64,000 nucleotides of DNA, taken from sequence record PP274704.1; one strand, written 5' to 3'. Shown one piece after another: positions 8,537 to 42,236 of the stretch. The translations under genes were made by a program, and so were the position numbers. A model generated the notes under the pieces. It did not search any database. It saw only the letters and a list, made by a program, of their open reading frames with translations, and was not told the DNA's origin. Positions within the stretch are counted from its first letter, which is position 1. Every line of letters starts with the position of its first letter. The DNA is from Escherichia phage ECp13.

Positions 8537-8796
8537 CTTTTGATGAATTTAAAAATGTTATGATGAGTCAGCATTTTGAATGCGAAGTAAAAGATGATAT
8601 TGGGCATAAAGAAATTATTGAATATTGGTTTGAACCGCTAGAGGTTGAAGATAATTGTATTAAAAAGGTTACGGTCTGCACTGACTGGGCTGTATCTTTT
8701 AACTTCAACATTTTAGATAATGACACACCTAAATCATTACAAGATATGGCTGTATCTTGTATTAAGGATGCATATTGTGAAGTTTTCGACATTTGA
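8533..8796 (+). CDS. Hypothetical protein (87 aa)
   Basis: ORF track; ATGA overlap with gene 47 stop. Confidence 0.5.
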   Translation: MTFDEFKNVMMSQHFECEVKDDIGHKEIIEYWFEPLEVEDNCIKKVTVCTDWAVSFNFNILDNDTPKSLQDMAVSCIKDAYCEVFDI

Positions 8797-8983
8797 CATT
8801 AACGATGAATTCATAGCAAATATTGATTACACCGAAGAAGATTCTAGATATGTTGGAATAATTTATATCACATCAAAAGCAGCGCAAGGTGTTGTTTGCA
8901 TGGCTGAATTTGATGAATACTTTTTAGATTATGATGATATGATAGAATGGTCTAAAAGATACATTAAAAGGAATCTTTTGTGA
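8768..8983 (+). CDS. Hypothetical protein (71 aa from ATG 8768)
   Basis: ORF track 8720..8983; first ATG at 8768; stop overlaps gene 46 GTG start. Confidence 0.45.
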   Translation: MHIVKFSTFDINDEFIANIDYTEEDSRYVGIIYITSKAAQGVVCMAEFDEYFLDYDDMIEWSKRYIKRNLL

Positions 8984-10662
8984 AGAATTTTAAACTAAAC
9001 CGAGTTAGGTATCAAAATATAATGTCAGTAGGTGGAAATCCTATTGACATTCAACTAGATAAGGTTCAAAAAACTCTTATTACTGGACGAAATGGCGGTG
9101 GTAAGTCTACTATGTTAGAAGCCATCACATTTGGGCTTTTTGGCAAGCCATTCCGTGATGTAAAGAAAGGCCAATTAATAAACAGCACAAATAAGAAAGA
9201 ACTTTTAGTTGAACTGTGGATGGAATATGATGAGAAAAAGTACTATATCAAAAGAGGACAAAAACCAAATGTTTTCGAAATCACCGTTAACGGTACACGT
9301 CTTAATGAATCTGCCAGCAGTAAAGATTTCCAAGCAGAATTTGAACAGCTTATCGGAATGTCATATGCCAGTTTCAAGCAGATTGTTGTCCTTGGTACAG
9401 CAGGGTATACCCCTTTCATGGGTTTGTCGACCCCTGCACGAAGAAAGCTTGTGGAAGACCTGCTCGAGGTAGGAACATTAGCTGAAATGGATAAGCTTAA
9501 TAAAGCACTAATACGTGAATTAAATTCACAAAACCAAGTGCTTGATGTTAAAAAAGATAGTATTATCCAACAAATTAAAATATATAATGATAACGTTGAA
9601 CGCCAGAAAAAATTAACTGGTGATAACCTTACTCGTCTACAGAATATGTATGATGATTTGGCAAAAGAAGCCAGAACGTTAAAATCGGAAATAGAAGAAG
9701 CTAATGAAAGATTAGTTAATATTGTTTTGGATGAAGACCCGACTGATGCATTTAATAAAATCGGTCAAGAAGCATTTTTAATTAAATCAAAAATTGACTC
9801 GTATAATAAAGTCATTAATATGTATCACGAAGGTGGATTATGTCCAACCTGTTTGTCACAATTAAGTTCCGGTGATAAAGTTGTTTCTAAAATTAAAGAT
9901 AAAGTTTCTGAATGCACGCATTCGTTTGAACAGCTTTCAACACATCGTGATAATTTAAAAGTTCTCGTTGATGAATACCGAGATAATATTAAAACCCAAC
10001 AGACGTTGGCAAATGATATTCGCAATAAAAAGCAATCTCTAATCACGACTGTAGATAAAGCTAAAAAAGTTAAAGCAGCTATAGAAAAAGCATCATCTGA
10101 GTTTATTGACCATGCTGATGAAATAGCACTGCTTCAAGAAGAACTTGATAAAATTGTTAAGACAAAAACTAATTTAGTAATGGAAAAATACCACAGAGGA
10201 ATTTTGACTGATATGCTCAAAGATTCTGGTATTAAAGGTGCTATTATTAAAAAGTACATTCCATTATTTAATAAGCAGATTAACCATTATCTTAAAATAA
10301 TGGAAGCGGATTATGTGTTTACATTAGATGAAGAATTTAATGAGACAATTAAATCCCGCGGTCGTGAAGATTTTAGTTATGCTTCATTTAGTCAAGGCGA
10401 AAAAGCACGAATTGATATTGCTCTTTTATTTACTTGGCGTGATATTGCTGAAAAAGTTTCAGGTGTTAAAATAAACACATTAATTCTTGACGAAGTTTTT
10501 GATTCAGCAACTGATGTTGAAGGTGTAAAAGCTATTTCAACTATTTTAGATAGTTTAAAAAATACTAATGTTTTTGTTATTTCGCATAGAGACCATGATC
10601 CACAAGCATACGGTCAGCATCTTCAAATGAAGAAAGTTGGTCGATTTACTGTAATGGTTTAA
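8980..10662 (+). CDS. 46: Recombination ATPase gp46 (Rad50/SbcC-like), GTG start
   Basis: 560 aa; Walker A GRNGGGKST; zinc-hook CPTC within long coiled coil. Confidence 0.9.
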   Translation: MKNFKLNRVRYQNIMSVGGNPIDIQLDKVQKTLITGRNGGGKSTMLEAITFGLFGKPFRDVKKGQLINSTNKKELLVELWMEYDEKKYYIKRGQKPNVFEITVNGTRLNESASSKDFQAEFEQLIGMSYASFKQIVVLGTAGYTPFMGLSTPARRKLVEDLLEVGTLAEMDKLNKALIRELNSQNQVLDVKKDSIIQQIKIYNDNVERQKKLTGDNLTRLQNMYDDLAKEARTLKSEIEEANERLVNIVLDEDPTDAFNKIGQEAFLIKSKIDSYNKVINMYHEGGLCPTCLSQLSSGDKVVSKIKDKVSECTHSFEQLSTHRDNLKVLVDEYRDNIKTQQTLANDIRNKKQSLITTVDKAKKVKAAIEKASSEFIDHADEIALLQEELDKIVKTKTNLVMEKYHRGILTDMLKDSGIKGAIIKKYIPLFNKQINHYLKIMEADYVFTLDEEFNETIKSRGREDFSYASFSQGEKARIDIALLFTWRDIAEKVSGVKINTLILDEVFDSATDVEGVKAISTILDSLKNTNVFVISHRDHDPQAYGQHLQMKKVGRFTVMV

Positions 10663-29419: not shown

Positions 29420-30166
29420 ATGAAACTGTCTAAAAATCAAATTCGTAAAATTACACGTCGTCTAGAGCATACCCAGGCATCTGCTAAAAGACGTTCTAAA
29501 GATTTTAACTTAGACTTCAATTACATTAAGAACATTTTAGATCAGAAAGTTTGCGCTTACTCAGGAGAACCTTTTGATAATCGTATTGAAGGAGAGAAAT
29601 TATCATTAGAACGTTTTGATAATAACGTTGGATACATTAAAGGGAATGTTATTGCAGTAAAGAAAAAGTACAATACATTTCGTTCTGATTATACTTTAGA
29701 AGAGTTGATTGAAAAGCGTGATTTATTTGCTTTGCGAATTGGTCGTTCATCTGCGAAAAAGGTTCATAAACTAAATTTAGATGAAAAGAAATGGGCTAAA
29801 ATCAAAAAGACTTATAATCAAATTAAAGCTATACAGAAAAAACGTGAAAACCGAATTGAACACATTTCTCAGCTTTCTAAATCAAAACAAACCTCTGACA
29901 TTAAGCTAACGATTGTAGCACTCAAAGCTCGTATTGATGGTTCTCGTATAGCAGAAGGAACTGAAGTTGTTAAATTGAACGTTCTTCTTAAAGGCTCTGA
30001 TTGGAAAACTGTGAAAAAGTTGTCAGAAGCAGAAATGCAATATGATATGTGTGATAAAATTATTCAAGGTGTAGAGCGGTATCAAAACTTGTCTTTTATT
30101 GATAAACTTAAACTGAAAAGAGGATACCCGCTAAATTGTTCAATTTTTAAACTTATCCGAGGATAA
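29420..30166 (+). CDS. srd: Srd-like protein (assigned by position)
   Basis: 248 aa basic protein between modA and dda.1. Confidence 0.5.
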   Translation: MKLSKNQIRKITRRLEHTQASAKRRSKDFNLDFNYIKNILDQKVCAYSGEPFDNRIEGEKLSLERFDNNVGYIKGNVIAVKKKYNTFRSDYTLEELIEKRDLFALRIGRSSAKKVHKLNLDEKKWAKIKKTYNQIKAIQKKRENRIEHISQLSKSKQTSDIKLTIVALKARIDGSRIAEGTEVVKLNVLLKGSDWKTVKKLSEAEMQYDMCDKIIQGVERYQNLSFIDKLKLKRGYPLNCSIFKLIRG

Positions 30167-30167
30167 T

Positions 30168-30479
30168 ATGTTTTATGTATATGCGATAGTGTATAGAGAC
30201 AAAGATGGATTTGCAGTGCCTGTTCCTCTTGATGAACATCGTCCTGCTGTATTTTTTGAAAGGGAGATTGCTGATAAAGTTTTTACAACTCTTAAAGAGC
30301 AGTATCTACTAGCTTTAGGTATGGGAATTCCTAGATTAGTTGAGACTCCACGCAAGTTTTGGTTTAATAAAATAGAAGTTAAACATGTTAAGCCTGATGT
30401 AGACACACAAAGATTATATCGGCGAATTTTAGATACTGGGCGTATTGTTAGTATACCAATTGCAGGGAATTTACGATGA
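30168..30479 (+). CDS. Hypothetical protein (103 aa), dda.1 position
   Basis: ORF track; coupled to dda. Confidence 0.55.
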   Translation: MFYVYAIVYRDKDGFAVPVPLDEHRPAVFFEREIADKVFTTLKEQYLLALGMGIPRLVETPRKFWFNKIEVKHVKPDVDTQRLYRRILDTGRIVSIPIAGNLR

Positions 30480-31795
30480 CATTTGATGATTTGACAGAAG
30501 GCCAGAAAAATGCCTTTAACATCGTTATGAGGGCTATTAAAGAAAAGAAACATCATGTAACTATTAATGGACCTGCTGGTACTGGTAAGACTACTCTTAC
30601 TAAGTTCATCATTGAAGCCTTAATATCTACGGGCGAAACTGGCATTATTTTAGCAGCTCCTACTCATGCAGCTAAAAAGATTCTTTCAAAACTGTCAGGG
30701 AAAGAAGCGAGTACTATTCACAGTATTCTCAAAATTAACCCGGTAACATATGAAGAAAACGTTCTTTTTGAACAAAAAGAAGTACCGGATTTAGCTAAAT
30801 GTAGAGTATTAATCTGCGACGAAGTGTCAATGTATGATAGAAAGCTATTTAAAATTCTGCTTTCAACTATCCCGCCGTGGTGTACTATAATTGGAATAGG
30901 CGATAATAAGCAAATTAGACCTGTTGACCCAGGAGAAAACACCGCTTATATCAGTCCGTTCTTTACACATAAAGATTTTTATCAGTGTGAACTCACTGAA
31001 GTTAAACGCAGTAATGCTCCTATTATTGATGTAGCTACTGATGTTCGCAACGGTAAGTGGATTTATGATAAAGTTGTTGACGGGCATGGAGTACGTGGAT
31101 TTACTGGTGATACCGCTTTACGTGATTTTATGGTAAATTATTTTTCAATCGTAAAATCACTAGACGATTTGTTTGAAAATCGCGTAATGGCATTTACGAA
31201 TAAATCTGTTGATAAGTTAAATAGCATTATTCGCAAAAAGATTTTTGAAACTGATAAAGATTTTATCGTTGGTGAAATTATTGTAATGCAGGAACCATTA
31301 ATTAAAACATATAAAATTGATGGAAAGCCTGTGTCAGAAATTATTTTTAATAACGGACAATTAGTTCGTATTATAGAAGCAGAGTATACATCAACATTTG
31401 TTAAAGCTCGTGGTGTTTCTGGAGAATATCTAATTCGTCATTGGGATTTAACGGTAGAAACTTACGGCGATGATGAATATTATCGTGAAAAGATTAAAAT
31501 AATTTCATCTGATGAAGAGCTGTATAAGTTTAACTTATTTTTAGGTAAAACGGCAGAAACGTATAAAAATTGGAATAAAGGTGGAAAAGCTCCGTGGAGT
31601 GATTTTTGGGATGCTAAATCACAGTTTAGTAAAGTGAAAGCACTTCCTGCATCAACATTCCATAAAGCTCAGGGCATGTCTGTAGACCGTGCTTTCATCT
31701 ATACACCTTGTATTCATTATGCAGATGCTGAATTGGCTCAGCAGCTTCTTTATGTTGGTGTCACTCGTGGTCGTTATGATGTGTTTTATGTGTGA
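30476..31795 (+). CDS. dda: DNA helicase Dda (SF1B)
   Basis: 439 aa; Walker A GPAGTGKTT; close match to remembered T4 Dda. Confidence 0.9.
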   Translation: MTFDDLTEGQKNAFNIVMRAIKEKKHHVTINGPAGTGKTTLTKFIIEALISTGETGIILAAPTHAAKKILSKLSGKEASTIHSILKINPVTYEENVLFEQKEVPDLAKCRVLICDEVSMYDRKLFKILLSTIPPWCTIIGIGDNKQIRPVDPGENTAYISPFFTHKDFYQCELTEVKRSNAPIIDVATDVRNGKWIYDKVVDGHGVRGFTGDTALRDFMVNYFSIVKSLDDLFENRVMAFTNKSVDKLNSIIRKKIFETDKDFIVGEIIVMQEPLIKTYKIDGKPVSEIIFNNGQLVRIIEAEYTSTFVKARGVSGEYLIRHWDLTVETYGDDEYYREKIKIISSDEELYKFNLFLGKTAETYKNWNKGGKAPWSDFWDAKSQFSKVKALPASTFHKAQGMSVDRAFIYTPCIHYADAELAQQLLYVGVTRGRYDVFYV

Positions 31796-31801
31796 GGATA
31801 T

Positions 31802-32062
31802 ATGATTAACATCAATTCAAAATATTTAAATCGTCTAATAGATGGTATAAAGAAGCACACTGATAAGCAAGATAACCTCAGTGTTATGGTAACAGGAGCT
31901 GAGCTCCTTTATAAGCTTAATCTTATAAGTGATACTATACTAGCAATTAAACGAATTGAAAAACAATCATATCACAGTAATACAGACACGGTAATTACGC
32001 TAGATGAAAGTGTCTGTAAGCTGTTGATTAAATTTGAGGAAGCTATTCGTGGAAATAACTAA
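31802..32062 (+). CDS. Hypothetical protein (86 aa), member 1 of a tandem paralog trio
   Basis: ORF track; C-terminal region resembles the next two ORFs. Confidence 0.5.
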   Translation: MININSKYLNRLIDGIKKHTDKQDNLSVMVTGAELLYKLNLISDTILAIKRIEKQSYHSNTDTVITLDESVCKLLIKFEEAIRGNN

Positions 32063-32294
32063 AGACCAGTTTTATCTGCTTCAAGATAAAGTGAGCGAAA
32101 TTTATGAAATAGCTTATAGTAAAAATCGTACAAATGTAAAAATTGAATCAGGCAAGTTAATGCTTCAATTGGAAGAAATTGAACGAGATTTGATTGCGTT
32201 AGAATTCTTTTGCGGTGAAGTGAAAACTGTTACAATCAGTGATTATGTTTTAGGTGAAATTAGCCATCTTTATAAGGCGGTTATTAATGATTGA
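32034..32294 (+). CDS. Hypothetical protein, paralog 2 (start uncertain: TTG 32034 or GTG 32049)
   Basis: ORF track; ...LQLEEIERDLIALEFF...VTISDYVLGEISHLYKAV. Confidence 0.4.
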   Translation: MRKLFVEITKDQFYLLQDKVSEIYEIAYSKNRTNVKIESGKLMLQLEEIERDLIALEFFCGEVKTVTISDYVLGEISHLYKAVIND

Positions 32295-32529
32295 ATTAAG
32301 TTTGCATCAGTTTAAGTCTCTTATGGCAAATGTTAAAGCTGTCATTCAAGAAAATTCAGGACCTGATAATGTTACTATTCGCGAAAAAGCTTTAAAGATA
32401 GTATACAGTCTTGAAGAGATACAAAAAGATATTGAATCTATGGCAAAATTTATTGATGAGCCCATTAATAAAGTTTATATCCAAGATTATACTGTAGGTC
32501 AAATTCGCGATTTAGCGAGGAAAATTTAA
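32287..32529 (+). CDS. Hypothetical protein, paralog 3 (80 aa from ATG 32287; ORF track starts 32254)
   Basis: ...SLEEIQKDIESMAKF...VYIQDYTVGQIRDLARKI. Confidence 0.4.
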   Translation: MIELSLHQFKSLMANVKAVIQENSGPDNVTIREKALKIVYSLEEIQKDIESMAKFIDEPINKVYIQDYTVGQIRDLARKI

Positions 32530-33212
32530 TGTTTGATTTTATTATAGATTTTGAAACAATGGGAAGCGGTGAAAAGGCAGCTGTTATTGATTTGGCTGTT
32601 ATTGCCTTTGACCCTAATCCAGAAGTAGTTGAAACATTTGATGAATTAGTTTCACGCGGCATTAAAATCAAGTTTGATTTAAAAAGCCAAAAAGGACATC
32701 GTCTTTTTACTAAAAGCACTATCGAATGGTGGAAAAATCAATCTCCTGAAGCTCGAAAAAATATTGCACCATCAGATGAAGATGTAAGCACTATCGATGG
32801 TATTGCAAAATTTAATGATTACATCAATGCGCATAATATCGATCCTTGGAAATCTCAAGGCTGGTGCCGTGGAATGTCGTTTGATTTTCCAATTTTAGTT
32901 GATCTCATTCGTGATATTCAGCGTCTTAACGGCGTTTCCGAGAATGAGCTTGATACGTTTAAGTTAGAACCTTGTAAATTCTGGAATCAACGCGATATTC
33001 GCACCAGAATTGAAGCACTTCTGCTTGTTCGTGATATGACCACATGTCCTCTTCCAAAGGGAACTTTAGACGGGTTCGTTGCGCATGATTCTATTCATGA
33101 CTGTGCGAAAGACATCCTGATGATGAAGTATGCTTTGCGATATGCTATGGGTCTTGAAGATGCTCCGTCAGAGGAAGAGTGCGATCCTCTATCTCTTCCA
33201 ACAAAACGATAA
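32529..33212 (+). CDS. dexA: Exonuclease A DexA (DEDD family)
   Basis: 227 aa; N-terminal DFETMG motif. Confidence 0.85.
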   Translation: MFDFIIDFETMGSGEKAAVIDLAVIAFDPNPEVVETFDELVSRGIKIKFDLKSQKGHRLFTKSTIEWWKNQSPEARKNIAPSDEDVSTIDGIAKFNDYINAHNIDPWKSQGWCRGMSFDFPILVDLIRDIQRLNGVSENELDTFKLEPCKFWNQRDIRTRIEALLLVRDMTTCPLPKGTLDGFVAHDSIHDCAKDILMMKYALRYAMGLEDAPSEEECDPLSLPTKR

Positions 33213-42041: not shown

Positions 42042-42236
42042 ATGTTAGGTTATCAAGCACGAGTAAAAGAAGAATACGATCAATTAATGCTCAAAATTAA
42101 TGCACTGAGCAAATTTTTAGAAAGCACAAAGTTTCTAACGATTAATGAAGTTGAGCAAGAACTGCTGCTTTCGCAGCTCATCTCAATGAAATCTTACGCA
42201 GATTGTTTAGAAAAAAGAATTGCACAATTCAAATAA
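42042..42236 (+). CDS. Hypothetical protein (64 aa)
   Basis: ORF track; AAGGAAAA SD. Confidence 0.45.
   Translation: MLGYQARVKEEYDQLMLKINALSKFLESTKFLTINEVEQELLLSQLISMKSYADCLEKRIAQFK

Follow-up and report, generated by a model that had tools for sequence, protein, structure and literature searches.

A third, very diverged gene of the DexA.1/DexA.2 family probably lies between dda and dexA in a T4-like phage genome

Introduction

Bacteriophage T4 carries two small genes, dexA.2 and dexA.1, in the slot between dda and dexA. Both have long been annotated, and their products (DexA.2, NP_049631, Y00H; DexA.1, NP_049630, Y00G) are grouped by Pfam as PF26837 Phage_T4_Y00H_G. In T4, the genes from dda.1 to dexA.1 are expressed as a single transcript, with an NAD-capped dda.1 (bioRxiv 10.1101/2024.04.04.588121). 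The DexA.2 protein has been detected in T4 infection with cGAS conjugated on Lys5; just one other T4 protein was found to form a covalent conjugate with CBASS cGAS (PMC10097602). A literature search returned dexA.1 and dexA.2 only through this conjugate and the NAD-capped transcript, and PF26837 nowhere.

Comparable genes are found in other genera. The phrog_5263 genes of Gaprivervirus (VR25_014), Karamvirus (CC31p016), Jiaodavirus (Mexia_015) and Tegunavirus (TG1 gp022) share the slot, the strand, the size (76–84 aa) and the tight coupling to dexA. They occur as a single copy (with a second, very diverged one in Tegunavirus), as against three genes in the DNA studied here, and their products are only 16–27% identical to the proteins described below. 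A further group, phrog_4967, comprises 86-aa proteins recorded as "hypothetical protein" or "Phage protein" in T6, RB68, AR1, KNP5, Sf25 and other Tequatroviruses. The databases hold it apart from the DexA.1/DexA.2 family, without a Pfam domain.

The window analysed here, a stretch of 64,000 nucleotides from Escherichia phage ECp13 (PP274704.1), is a Tequatrovirus (T4-like) genome. In its dda–dexA interval there are probably three homologues from a single small Straboviridae-specific family, namely ORF1, dexA.2 and dexA.1. The new element is ORF1, which belongs to phrog_4967, is without a counterpart in T4 and is, on profile and fold evidence, a very diverged and unrecorded third member of a known family.

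Results and Discussion

Organization of the dda–dexA interval

The gene order around the interval is srd–dda.1–dda–ORF1–dexA.2–dexA.1–dexA. As the initial annotation had stated, positions 31802–32529 are filled by three consecutive same-strand ORFs of 80–86 codons (Table 1). The T4 annotation places dexA.2 and dexA.1 in the same slot, and their translations match ORF2 and ORF3, with 90% amino-acid identity for DexA.2 (tblastn) and about 90% for DexA.1. Position, lengths and start codons (GTG and ATG) are as in T4, and so is the way in which the two genes overlap one another and dexA. The two pairs are alleles with no difference of kind; the window carries ORF1 upstream in addition, a gene missing from T4. 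The same layout of small single-domain genes (76–86 aa) packed on one strand between dda and dexA was also observed in T4, WG01, VR25, CC31, Mexia and TG1, and dexA itself was found by tblastn across 1520 phage records.

Table 1. Features of the dda–dexA region, in window coordinates
Feature	Coordinates	Strand	Evidence
Probable promoter and transcription start of the dda.1–dda–ORF1–dexA.2–dexA.1 transcript	30034..30067	+	Sequence reading; position match to T4
dda, Dda DNA helicase, 439 aa, upstream neighbour	30476..31795	+	ORF list, sequence; annotation of T4 and relatives
232-bp segment missing from T4 and RB32, TGA at each end	31796..32027	.	Alignments of the window with T4, RB32 and RB14
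ORF1, 86 aa, ATG start, phrog_4967, pI 7.9	31802..32062	+	PHROG, HMM, hhalign, AF2, Foldseek, dN/dS
dexA.2 (ORF2), 81 aa, GTG start, pI 4.7, orthologue of T4 dexA.2 (Y00H)	32049..32294	+	T4 annotation/translation, tblastn, phrog_1700
dexA.1 (ORF3), 80 aa, ATG start, pI 5.8, orthologue of T4 dexA.1 (Y00G)	32287..32529	+	T4 annotation/translation, phrog_1700, AF2
dexA, exonuclease A, 227 aa, downstream neighbour	32529..33212	+	ORF list, T4 annotation, tblastn

The genes are joined end to end. The TGA stop of dda overlaps the ORF1 Shine-Dalgarno sequence (TGAGGATATATG), the 3' end of ORF1 overlaps dexA.2 by 14 nt, the ATG of dexA.1 overlaps the dexA.2 stop as ATGATTGA, and the dexA.1 stop and dexA start share TAATG. 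These overlaps imply translational coupling down to dexA. The start codons had been considered uncertain on the grounds that two of the three ORFs lacked a clean ATG. This count proved incorrect, as ORF1 and dexA.1 both begin with ATG and only dexA.2 has a non-ATG start, and the starts are less uncertain than had been stated. The GTG of dexA.2 is preceded by GAGGAA 8–13 nt upstream and is the start annotated in T4; the N-terminus that it gives is the one required by the published cGAS conjugate on Lys5 of T4 DexA.2 (PMC10097602).

A putative promoter was located inside the 3' end of srd. It consists of a MotA-box-like sequence, AATGCAATA, a −10 element TAAAAT at 30055–30060 and a start near A30067, which lies 101 nt upstream of the dda.1 ATG (30168) and has an A at −1, exactly the T4 arrangement (bioRxiv 10.1101/2024.04.04.588121). 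The match in position makes it the probable promoter of the dda.1–dexA.1 transcript, from which ORF1, dexA.2 and dexA.1 would be made as in T4. A search with a strict MotA-box pattern returned no site anywhere in the operon, this putative promoter included, and a scan for sigma-70 promoters and terminators between dda and dexA gave nothing beyond chance.

DexA.2 and DexA.1 form one family

The initial annotation had proposed that all three proteins share a C-terminal pattern, a claim to be refuted if the similarity were not significant relative to shuffled controls. For DexA.2 and DexA.1 the similarity was confirmed over the full length: BLASTP aligned them at 25% identity over 79 aa (E 4e-8), and the phmmer score of 22.3–22.7 bits was reached by none of 5000 composition-preserving shuffles (maximum 11.8). 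Both proteins match phrog_1700, DexA.2 at its positions 1–80 (E 1.5e-49) and DexA.1 at positions 80–159 (E 7.8e-42), and they belong to one PHROG and one Pfam family. Judged by sequence, the two are clearly homologous.

A 159-aa dexA.2–dexA.1 "fusion" recorded for ime09 was considered as a Rosetta-stone sign of a heterodimer and rejected, as it results from a single 1-nt deletion in one record.

ORF1 is a distant member of the same family

For ORF1, the pairwise part of the claim failed. BLASTP gave no match to DexA.2, a match at E 0.2 to DexA.1, and nothing significant against WG01 and VR25. In the shuffle test, its scores against DexA.2 and DexA.1 were reached by 1978 and 269 of 5000 shuffles, respectively. 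The best pairwise match was to VR25, where the phmmer score was reached by a single shuffle in 5000.

Kinship was instead detected by profiles. ORF1 matches phrog_4967 at E 6.5e-57 and also phrog_5263, over the full length, at E 1.6e-6; DexA.2 and DexA.1 likewise match phrog_5263 along their full length, at E 5e-8 and 2e-4, so that ORF1 fits this profile better than DexA.1 does. Two family HMMs built without ORF1 scored it at 18.9 and 20.3 bits, values reached by 0 of 5000 and 0 of 3000 shuffles. When all six frames of the window were scanned, ORF1 (E 2.5e-5) was the only match besides DexA.1 and DexA.2, the next sequence being at E 0.012. For ORF1, hhalign gave E 0.0014 with a probability of only 17%. 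The profile alignment of ORF1 is weak and covers residues 1–52 only, although it starts at residue 1 and is collinear.

The C-terminal pattern LIKFEEAIRG, which had been offered as the ORF1 version of a common motif, lies outside these aligned residues and does not support the relationship. In an alignment of 11 family sequences including DexA.2 and DexA.1, D67, Y68, I73 and L76 are invariant and G71 is nearly so. The resulting D-Y-x-x-G-x-I-x-x-L motif, at the β2/α3 junction, is present in DexA.2 and DexA.1 and is missing from ORF1, which reads D-E-S-V-C-K-L-L at the aligned position and retains just the D and the hydrophobic spacing.

The predicted structures pointed in the same direction as the profiles. 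The AF2 model of DexA.1 (pLDDT 94.4) has β2–5, α6–22, α26–56, β62–65 and α67–79, and that of ORF1 (pLDDT 87, from an input of four near-identical sequences) has β2–5, α6–21, α26–52, β64–67 and α69–84, the same β-α-α-β-α order. Each gene product is a single-domain protein of ~80 aa (~9 kDa), with a predicted fold in which a sheet of two strands closes a bundle of three helices. In reciprocal Foldseek searches of BFVD, ORF1 and DexA.1 each returned the homologues of the other and the proteins encoded between dda and dexA in CC31, Tegunavirus and Dhakavirus. With ORF1 as the query, DexA.2 and the Dhakavirus and CC31 homologues were found at TM 0.73–0.79; the BFVD model of DexA.2 reached TM 0.86 to the DexA.1 query and 0.73–0.77 to ORF1. 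The models of the CC31 and Tegunavirus phrog_5263 proteins match those of DexA.1 and ORF1 alike. Generic three-helix bundles of the PDB, such as the CheA P1 domain, bundles designed de novo and the myosin VI lever-arm extension, are only 1–16% identical, without sequence similarity, and apparently have no functional site in common with the window proteins.

We conclude that ORF1 is a distant family member as judged by profiles and predicted fold, and not by a C-terminal motif. The family is PF26837, corresponding to phrog_1700 plus phrog_5263, and ORF1 is a member without a database record. Precomputed Pfam assignments place PF26837 on DexA.1-type and VR25-type proteins and give no domain ("-") for ORF1 homologues, which suggests that ORF1 falls below the PF26837 threshold. 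A local Pfam scan returned no match for any of the three proteins, the known-family DexA.1 and DexA.2 included; the PF26837 model was apparently missing from the copy scanned. The link to phrog_4967 made here is new, and its value is mostly a tidying of the record. The finding is real but ordinary, and nothing at the locus would surprise a T4 specialist.

Distribution and selection

A tblastn search of 50,697 phage records found ORF1 in 309 of ~496 Tequatrovirus-level records. The search returned only relatives with at least 93% identity, and 308 of the 309 records were at least 90% identical. A sequence identical to ORF1 is recorded for Shigella phage ESh36 and others. T4 and RB32 are without the gene: one common 232-bp deletion removes ORF1 codons 1–75 and spares its last 35 nt, which carry the ribosome-binding site and start of dexA.2. 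T4 is probably a deletion derivative at the dda–dexA locus. In RB14, ORF1 is frameshifted by an 8-bp duplication.

Across Straboviridae the copy number in the slot ranges from 0 to 3; RB69 and Riv-10 retain both flanking genes, dda and dexA, around an empty slot. The slots of Slopekvirus and Krischvirus hold small genes without detectable sequence similarity to the family. An exhaustive HMMER search of 1.84 billion representatives returned 11 matches, which were family members or fragments and one repeat protein at E 5.5e-4. Aeh1 was read to learn which of dda and dexA the family accompanies where these are separated, and neither dda nor the fold relatives were located within the 24 kb read; its dexA adjoins the primase and a dUTPase-like ORF. 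The fold relatives in genomes such as Aeh1 and phiAS5 are Q76YD5/6 and E1A2I7-9.

The dN/dS comparison proposed in the initial annotation gave 0.05–0.16 for ORF1 (comparisons with amino-acid changes), 0.06–0.19 for dexA.2 and 0.16–0.29 for dexA.1, relative to 0.00–0.04 for dda and at most 0.02 for dexA. All three small genes are under purifying selection, looser than that on their neighbours. They are real genes as judged by these dN/dS values, the DexA.2 protein seen in T4 infection and the T4 transcript running from dda.1 to dexA.1. The suggestion that ORF1 is not a real gene was likewise rejected in view of its dN/dS, conservation and confident predicted fold.

Possible functions

The three proteins showed neither a catalytic motif nor a match to an enzyme family. 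Searches of Pfam and NCBIfam for an enzyme signature returned no significant or above-cut-off match (the best NCBIfam hits, from E 0.005, were to unrelated families far below curated cut-offs), and when PDB sequences were searched with the family profile, no match fell below E 0.03 and the hits were just coiled or helical noise. The same Pfam, NCBIfam and PDB searches found no glycoside-hydrolase or nuclease domain and no catalytic motif in DexA.2 or DexA.1. The labels "dextranase" and "exonuclease" carried by these proteins in RefSeq, UniRef and many phage records are evidently artefacts of the gene symbols dexA.1 and dexA.2, and we flag them as widely propagated misnomers. PHROGs labels every matching family "unknown function".

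Our tentative proposal is that the three proteins may act as non-enzymatic binders that assist or regulate the neighbouring nucleic-acid enzymes, in the first place DexA and in the second Dda. The divergence in surface charge among the paralogues (pI 7.9, 4.7 and 5.8) suggests partly different partners. Against this proposal, RB69 and Riv-10 have no slot gene, T4 copes without ORF1, and constraint on the small genes is looser than on their two neighbours. These three observations agree at least as well with a role that is accessory and dispensable, or directed at the host.

A host-directed role would make the three proteins takeover or anti-defence factors, small binding proteins by which some bacterial protein is neutralised or decoyed, with copies kept or lost according to host range. 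We regard this as possible, though on the unlikely side. It would explain the varying copy number, the presence, absence and pseudogene polymorphism of ORF1 within one genus, and dN/dS values several-fold to more than ten-fold above those of dda and dexA; the proteins are also made early to middle in infection, and DexA.2 is among just two T4 proteins conjugated to CBASS cGAS (PMC10097602). That conjugate, the sole experimental link to counter-defence, may however be a bystander, and the proteins show no similarity to any named protein family. The dN/dS values are well below 1, with no sign of an arms race, and the same slot and fold recur in phages that infect Acinetobacter, Yersinia, Klebsiella and Enterobacter, which points to a target that is either internal to the phage or very conserved.

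A bolder form of the partner proposal is doubtful. Here, dda, a variable number of DexA.1-type genes and dexA would constitute an ancient module in which the small proteins tune or target DexA or Dda, the three diverged copies of most Tequatroviruses giving three specificities; or else DexA.2 would be a target of CBASS conjugation or sensing. Either would be the first function for a T4 ORFan family annotated for decades. If the proteins are partners of DexA or Dda, or are involved in CBASS, the series of 0 to 3 copies in natural phages is a ready-made comparative system.

Origin of the three genes

The initial annotation had explained the three genes by local duplication and divergence. The tandem homologous genes agree with duplication, whereas tree and identities indicate that the duplications were probably old and not recent local events. 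In an unrooted tree of ~78 columns, DexA.1 first joins the Dhakavirus gene, a single-copy one (92% bootstrap), and only then DexA.2 (96%). ORF1 is 20–27% identical to the single-copy genes of Gaprivervirus (VR25, 27%), Karamvirus, Jiaodavirus and Tegunavirus, whereas its identity to DexA.2, DexA.1 and the Dhakavirus gene is only 13–15%, with 14–15% for its two neighbours in the window. The slot would at first have had a single ancestral gene, duplicated more than once, long ago, and lineages would afterwards have retained 0, 1, 2 or 3 copies. ORF1 would then have been lost from T4 and RB32 through the one deletion, and inactivated in RB14 through the 8-bp duplication.

These identities could also mean that ORF1 is a xenologue and not a local tandem duplicate, a slot allele that came from a different T4-like lineage, was placed beside dexA.2 and dexA.1 through unequal or illegitimate recombination during co-infection, and is still homologous to its neighbours. 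The best pairwise match to VR25 and the phrog_5263 score, higher than that of DexA.1, would fit such an origin. We consider it unlikely, since old duplication with differential loss explains the same pattern, the unrooted tree rests on few columns, and no donor more than 27% identical was found in the 50,697 phage records or in protein collections.

It is very improbable that ORF1 has no kinship with DexA.1 and DexA.2 and is a small helical ORFan of independent origin in a hyperplastic slot, whose profile and topology likeness reflects convergence of amphipathic helical proteins: the background-level pairwise scores, the low hhalign probability, the missing D-Y-x-x-G motif and the dissimilar slot genes of Slopekvirus and Krischvirus speak for it, and small helical bundles can converge on one fold, but three independent profiles detect ORF1 far above shuffled and genomic backgrounds, the match is collinear from its first residue, Foldseek over the whole viral structure library returns specifically slot proteins at probability 1.0, and the secondary-structure boundaries of ORF1 and DexA.1 agree within 1–4 residues before the longer α2–β2 loop of ORF1, with an offset of 2–5 residues after it.

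Old duplication within one family remains our preferred reading. Foldseek also returned similar models from T4-like phages of Acinetobacter, Erwinia and Aeromonas, and two genes of Acj9 sit in the dda–dexA slot. The family fold, and for Acj9 the slot too, reaches further than sequence searches see.

Locus organization and gene identities

The window derives from a close relative of T4, and a megablast search with region 31700-32650 matched 499 phage records, nearly all of Tequatrovirus, at 90-99% identity. The genes from srd to dexA form a tightly packed block. The initial annotation had claimed three tandem paralogous genes of unknown function between dda and dexA (hereafter, the slot), and the gene layout bore out three ORFs in this interval. 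In the T4 reference, two genes are annotated there, dexA.2 (246 nt) and dexA.1 (243 nt). Because their translations agree with ORF2 and ORF3, and T4 was ~90% identical to each by tblastn, ORF2 was assigned as dexA.2 and ORF3 as dexA.1. These two genes are already known and are already united in Pfam as PF26837 (Phage_T4_Y00H_G). New is the recognition of ORF1 (phrog_4967) as a cryptic third member of the family, deleted in T4.

Coordinates of the features of the locus, with dN/dS of the window against seven relatives
Feature	Position	Strand	dN/dS
srd	29420-30166	+	
Promoter region inside srd	30034-30067		
-10 element (TAAAAT)	30055-30060		
dda.1	30168-30479	+	
dda	30476-31795	+	0.00-0.04
Terminator-like hairpin	31726-31743	+	
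Gap in T4 and RB32	31796-32027		
ORF1	31802-32062	+	0.05-0.16
Equivalent of the RB14 duplication	about 31820-31827		
dexA.2 (ORF2)	32049-32294	+	0.06-0.19
Equivalent of the A missing in ime09	32283		
dexA.1 (ORF3)	32287-32529	+	0.16-0.29
dexA	32529-33212	+	0.00-0.02
64-aa helical-looking ORF	42042-42236	+	

ORF1 begins with an ATG, with a GAGGA overlapping the dda stop codon. The start of dexA.2 is a GTG with GAGGAA 8-13 nt upstream, and the same GTG is used in the T4 annotation; a TTG at 32034, taken from a mechanical ORF list, was rejected in its favour. Every homologue opens with M-x-φ-x-φ at this GTG, and the cGAS conjugate published on Lys5 of T4 DexA.2 (PMC10097602) fits its M-E-I-T-K N-terminus. 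The clean ATG of dexA.1 overlaps the dexA.2 stop (ATGATTGA), and the dexA.1 stop overlaps the dexA ATG (TAATG). Only one gene, dexA.2, is without an ATG, not two of the three as previously annotated.

ORF1 as a distant member of the DexA.1/DexA.2 family

The similarity of DexA.2 and DexA.1 is beyond chance, with 25% identity over 79 residues by BLASTP (E 4e-8) and 22-23 bits by phmmer, above all 5000 shuffles (maximum 11.8). For ORF1, BLASTP gave no match to one neighbour and E 0.2 to the other, and the observed scores were attained by 1978 and 269 of 5000 shuffles, respectively. The pairwise similarity of ORF1 to its neighbours is therefore at the background of the shuffled controls; as the initial annotation had itself named this outcome as refuting, ORF1 would not pass on pairwise comparison. 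The string quoted for ORF1, LIKFEEAIRG, does not serve as evidence for ORF1 either, as it sits in the C-terminal helix, where ORF1 has only hydrophobic spacing in common with the family, and the profile signal is confined to residues 1-52. ORF1 further carries D-E-S-V-C where the family has a D-Y-x-x-G motif.

Four independent lines, namely PHROGs, HMMs, predicted structure and Foldseek, place ORF1 in the family, and the reading of three tandem paralogues is supported on these grounds. Besides belonging to phrog_4967, ORF1 matched phrog_5263 over its full length (E 1.6e-6), a family of single-copy slot genes from VR25, CC31, Mexia and TG1 that was also matched by DexA.2 (5e-8) and DexA.1 (2e-4). 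An HMM built without ORF1, from DexA.1, DexA.2, Dhakavirus and Gaprivervirus sequences, assigned ORF1 18.9 bits (single-comparison E 6e-8), which none of 5000 shuffles reached (maximum 11.6); an enlarged core HMM, again without ORF1, gave 20.3 bits (0/3000 shuffles). When the six-frame translation of the window was scanned with the first HMM, the only matches among all 373 segments were DexA.1, DexA.2 and ORF1 (E 2.5e-5). The next-best match (10.2 bits, E 0.012) was the 64-aa ORF, probably a chance likeness of amphipathic helices. With hhalign, ORF1 obtained E 0.0014 at a probability of only 17%.

The predicted structures of DexA.1 (β2-5, α6-22, α26-56, β62-65, α67-79; pLDDT 94.4) and ORF1 (β2-5, α6-21, α26-52, β64-67, α69-84; pLDDT 87.1, from just four near-identical sequences) present the same order of elements. 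When searched against BFVD with Foldseek, the DexA.1 model retrieved DexA.2, the Dhakavirus gene, CC31, Tegunavirus and others, as well as the 86-aa Sf25 homologue of ORF1 (TM 0.82, probability 1.0). The ORF1 model retrieved the Sf25 homologue as its top match, and the next six included CC31, Tegunavirus, the Dhakavirus gene and DexA.2 (TM 0.73-0.88, probability 1.0).

Probable deletion and decay of ORF1

ORF1 was found in 309 phage records, 308 of which were at least 90% identical, and DexA.2 at ≥80% identity in about 496, which puts the share of sequenced Tequatroviruses with the full set of three at roughly 60%. The same 232-bp gap, edged by TGA on either side, occurs in T4 and RB32; across it, the dda stop codon is fused to what is left of ORF1, its final 35 nt, where the dexA.2 ribosome-binding site lies. 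Since ORF1 is of long standing in the family and its C-terminal helix extends across the junction, we infer that the gap is one deletion in the T4 lineage. In RB14 (NC_012638, locus about 584-600), an 8-bp tandem duplication (AAATATTT AAATATTT) at codons 7-9 shifts the frame, and all that RefSeq annotates of the gene is 58 aa read from an internal ATG (RB14ORF15, with the remark 'conserved in RB51'); the RB14 copy looks like a natural pseudogene. Given the gap in T4 and RB32 and the frameshift in RB14, ORF1 is dispensable, at least in the laboratory.

The slot across lineages

The family is tiny at the sequence level, with 11 matches found by HMMER in 1.84 billion representative proteins. Mosigvirus (RB69) and Biquartavirus (Riv-10) have no small slot gene; Dhakavirus (WG01), Gaprivervirus (VR25), Karamvirus (CC31) and Jiaodavirus (Mexia) have one; T4, RB32, Tegunavirus (TG1) and Acinetobacter phage Acj9 have two, and the window has three. 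In Aeh1, dexA does not adjoin dda, and the slot genes of Slopekvirus and Krischvirus showed no detectable sequence similarity to the family.

The two tandem slot genes of TG1 and of Acj9 parallel the relation of ORF1 to DexA.1/DexA.2. In Yersinia phage TG1 (locus 1350-1804), gp022, with its match to phrog_5263, is the canonical copy, and gp021 (phrog_24548) has diverged past easy sequence detection. Neither Acj9 protein (locus 8782-9275; 92 and 71 aa; BFVD E5EPF6 and E5EPF5 by organism and length) matched phrog_5263, and fold was the only link for the two, as Foldseek pairs both with DexA.1. This suggests repeated asymmetric divergence after duplication, in TG1 at least. In a neighbour-joining tree, DexA.1 and the Dhakavirus gene paired at 92% bootstrap and were then joined by DexA.2 (96%), and ORF1 was 27% identical to VR25 versus 14-15% to its own neighbours, which fits old duplications with differential loss. 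Alternatively, ORF1 may have been acquired by recombination from another lineage, and the data are compatible with either history.

Selection and expression

Nei-Gojobori dN/dS, the analysis proposed with the initial annotation, was calculated for the window against T4 and six further Tequatroviruses. Purifying selection acts on each of the three small genes (0.05-0.29 overall), less tightly than on dda and dexA.

The product of dexA.2 has been observed in infected cells (PMC10097602). In a preprint on NAD capping, T4 dda.1, dda, dexA.2 and dexA.1 are reported to share one transcript, initiated at a single site 101 nt ahead of dda.1 (bioRxiv 10.1101/2024.04.04.588121). The corresponding region of the window contains the -10 element, an imperfect MotA-box-like element (AATGCAATA) upstream of it, and A30067, which follows another A and lies at the same 101-nt distance from the dda.1 ATG; judged by position, the T4 promoter and transcription start appear to be conserved. 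In the interval between dda and dexA, no candidate promoter or terminator rose above chance. The sole terminator-like hairpin detected over 29-33.7 kb, inside the dda 3' end (6-bp stem, tail GCTTCTTTAT), is part of the gene's coding sequence and does not exceed what chance would give (2.4 expected).

Possible function

The three proteins had no Pfam match and only sub-threshold NCBIfam noise. The Pfam negative is uninformative, as the local Pfam-A was silent on DexA.1 and DexA.2 too and seemingly lacks PF26837, which precomputed annotation lists for their homologues. Every matching PHROG is labelled 'unknown function', and no solved structure of any relative was found. Across hundreds of records, in RefSeq, UniRef and PHROG-based annotations, the name 'dextranase' is attached to DexA.2 and 'exonuclease' to both proteins (NP_049631 and NP_049630 in T4). 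Neither name is supported by any domain in these 80-aa helical proteins; the labels seem to derive from gene symbols and to have been propagated.

Our tentative proposal is that the three may be non-enzymatic binding proteins working with the flanking enzymes, DexA first, because the slot is conserved and coupled translationally to dexA in every verified member. The charge differences (pI 7.9, 4.7 and 5.8 for ORF1, DexA.2 and DexA.1) are consistent with diverged partners. The main rival, a host-directed or anti-defence role, would fit the variable copy number, the faster evolution and the cGAS–DexA.2 conjugate, and we consider it only slightly less probable.

Anomalous database records

The 159-aa 'dexA.1' of ime09 (JN202312, 964-1443) is a dexA.2–dexA.1 fusion through a single missing A (GGTTATTAATG to GGTT-TTAATG), whose absence may stem from faulty sequencing or from an isolated mutation; the fusion accounts for the 160-column phrog_1700 profile and the two-domain BFVD G1FHL1. 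A representative-library match, P0075 (81 aa), resembles DexA.2 as it would read with A in place of G, apparently throughout (E->K, D->N, V->I, A->T, G->N, R->H, C->Y). This suggests that the contig was built from T4 control DNA reads after bisulfite or deaminase conversion and, if so, that the public collection contains an artefactual 'protein'. In P0068 (112 aa; ENA, 618-bp contig), the final 40 residues of DexA.1 follow 72 N-terminal residues of unrelated sequence; the probable cause is chimerism or misassembly of the short contig, not a genuine fusion of domains.
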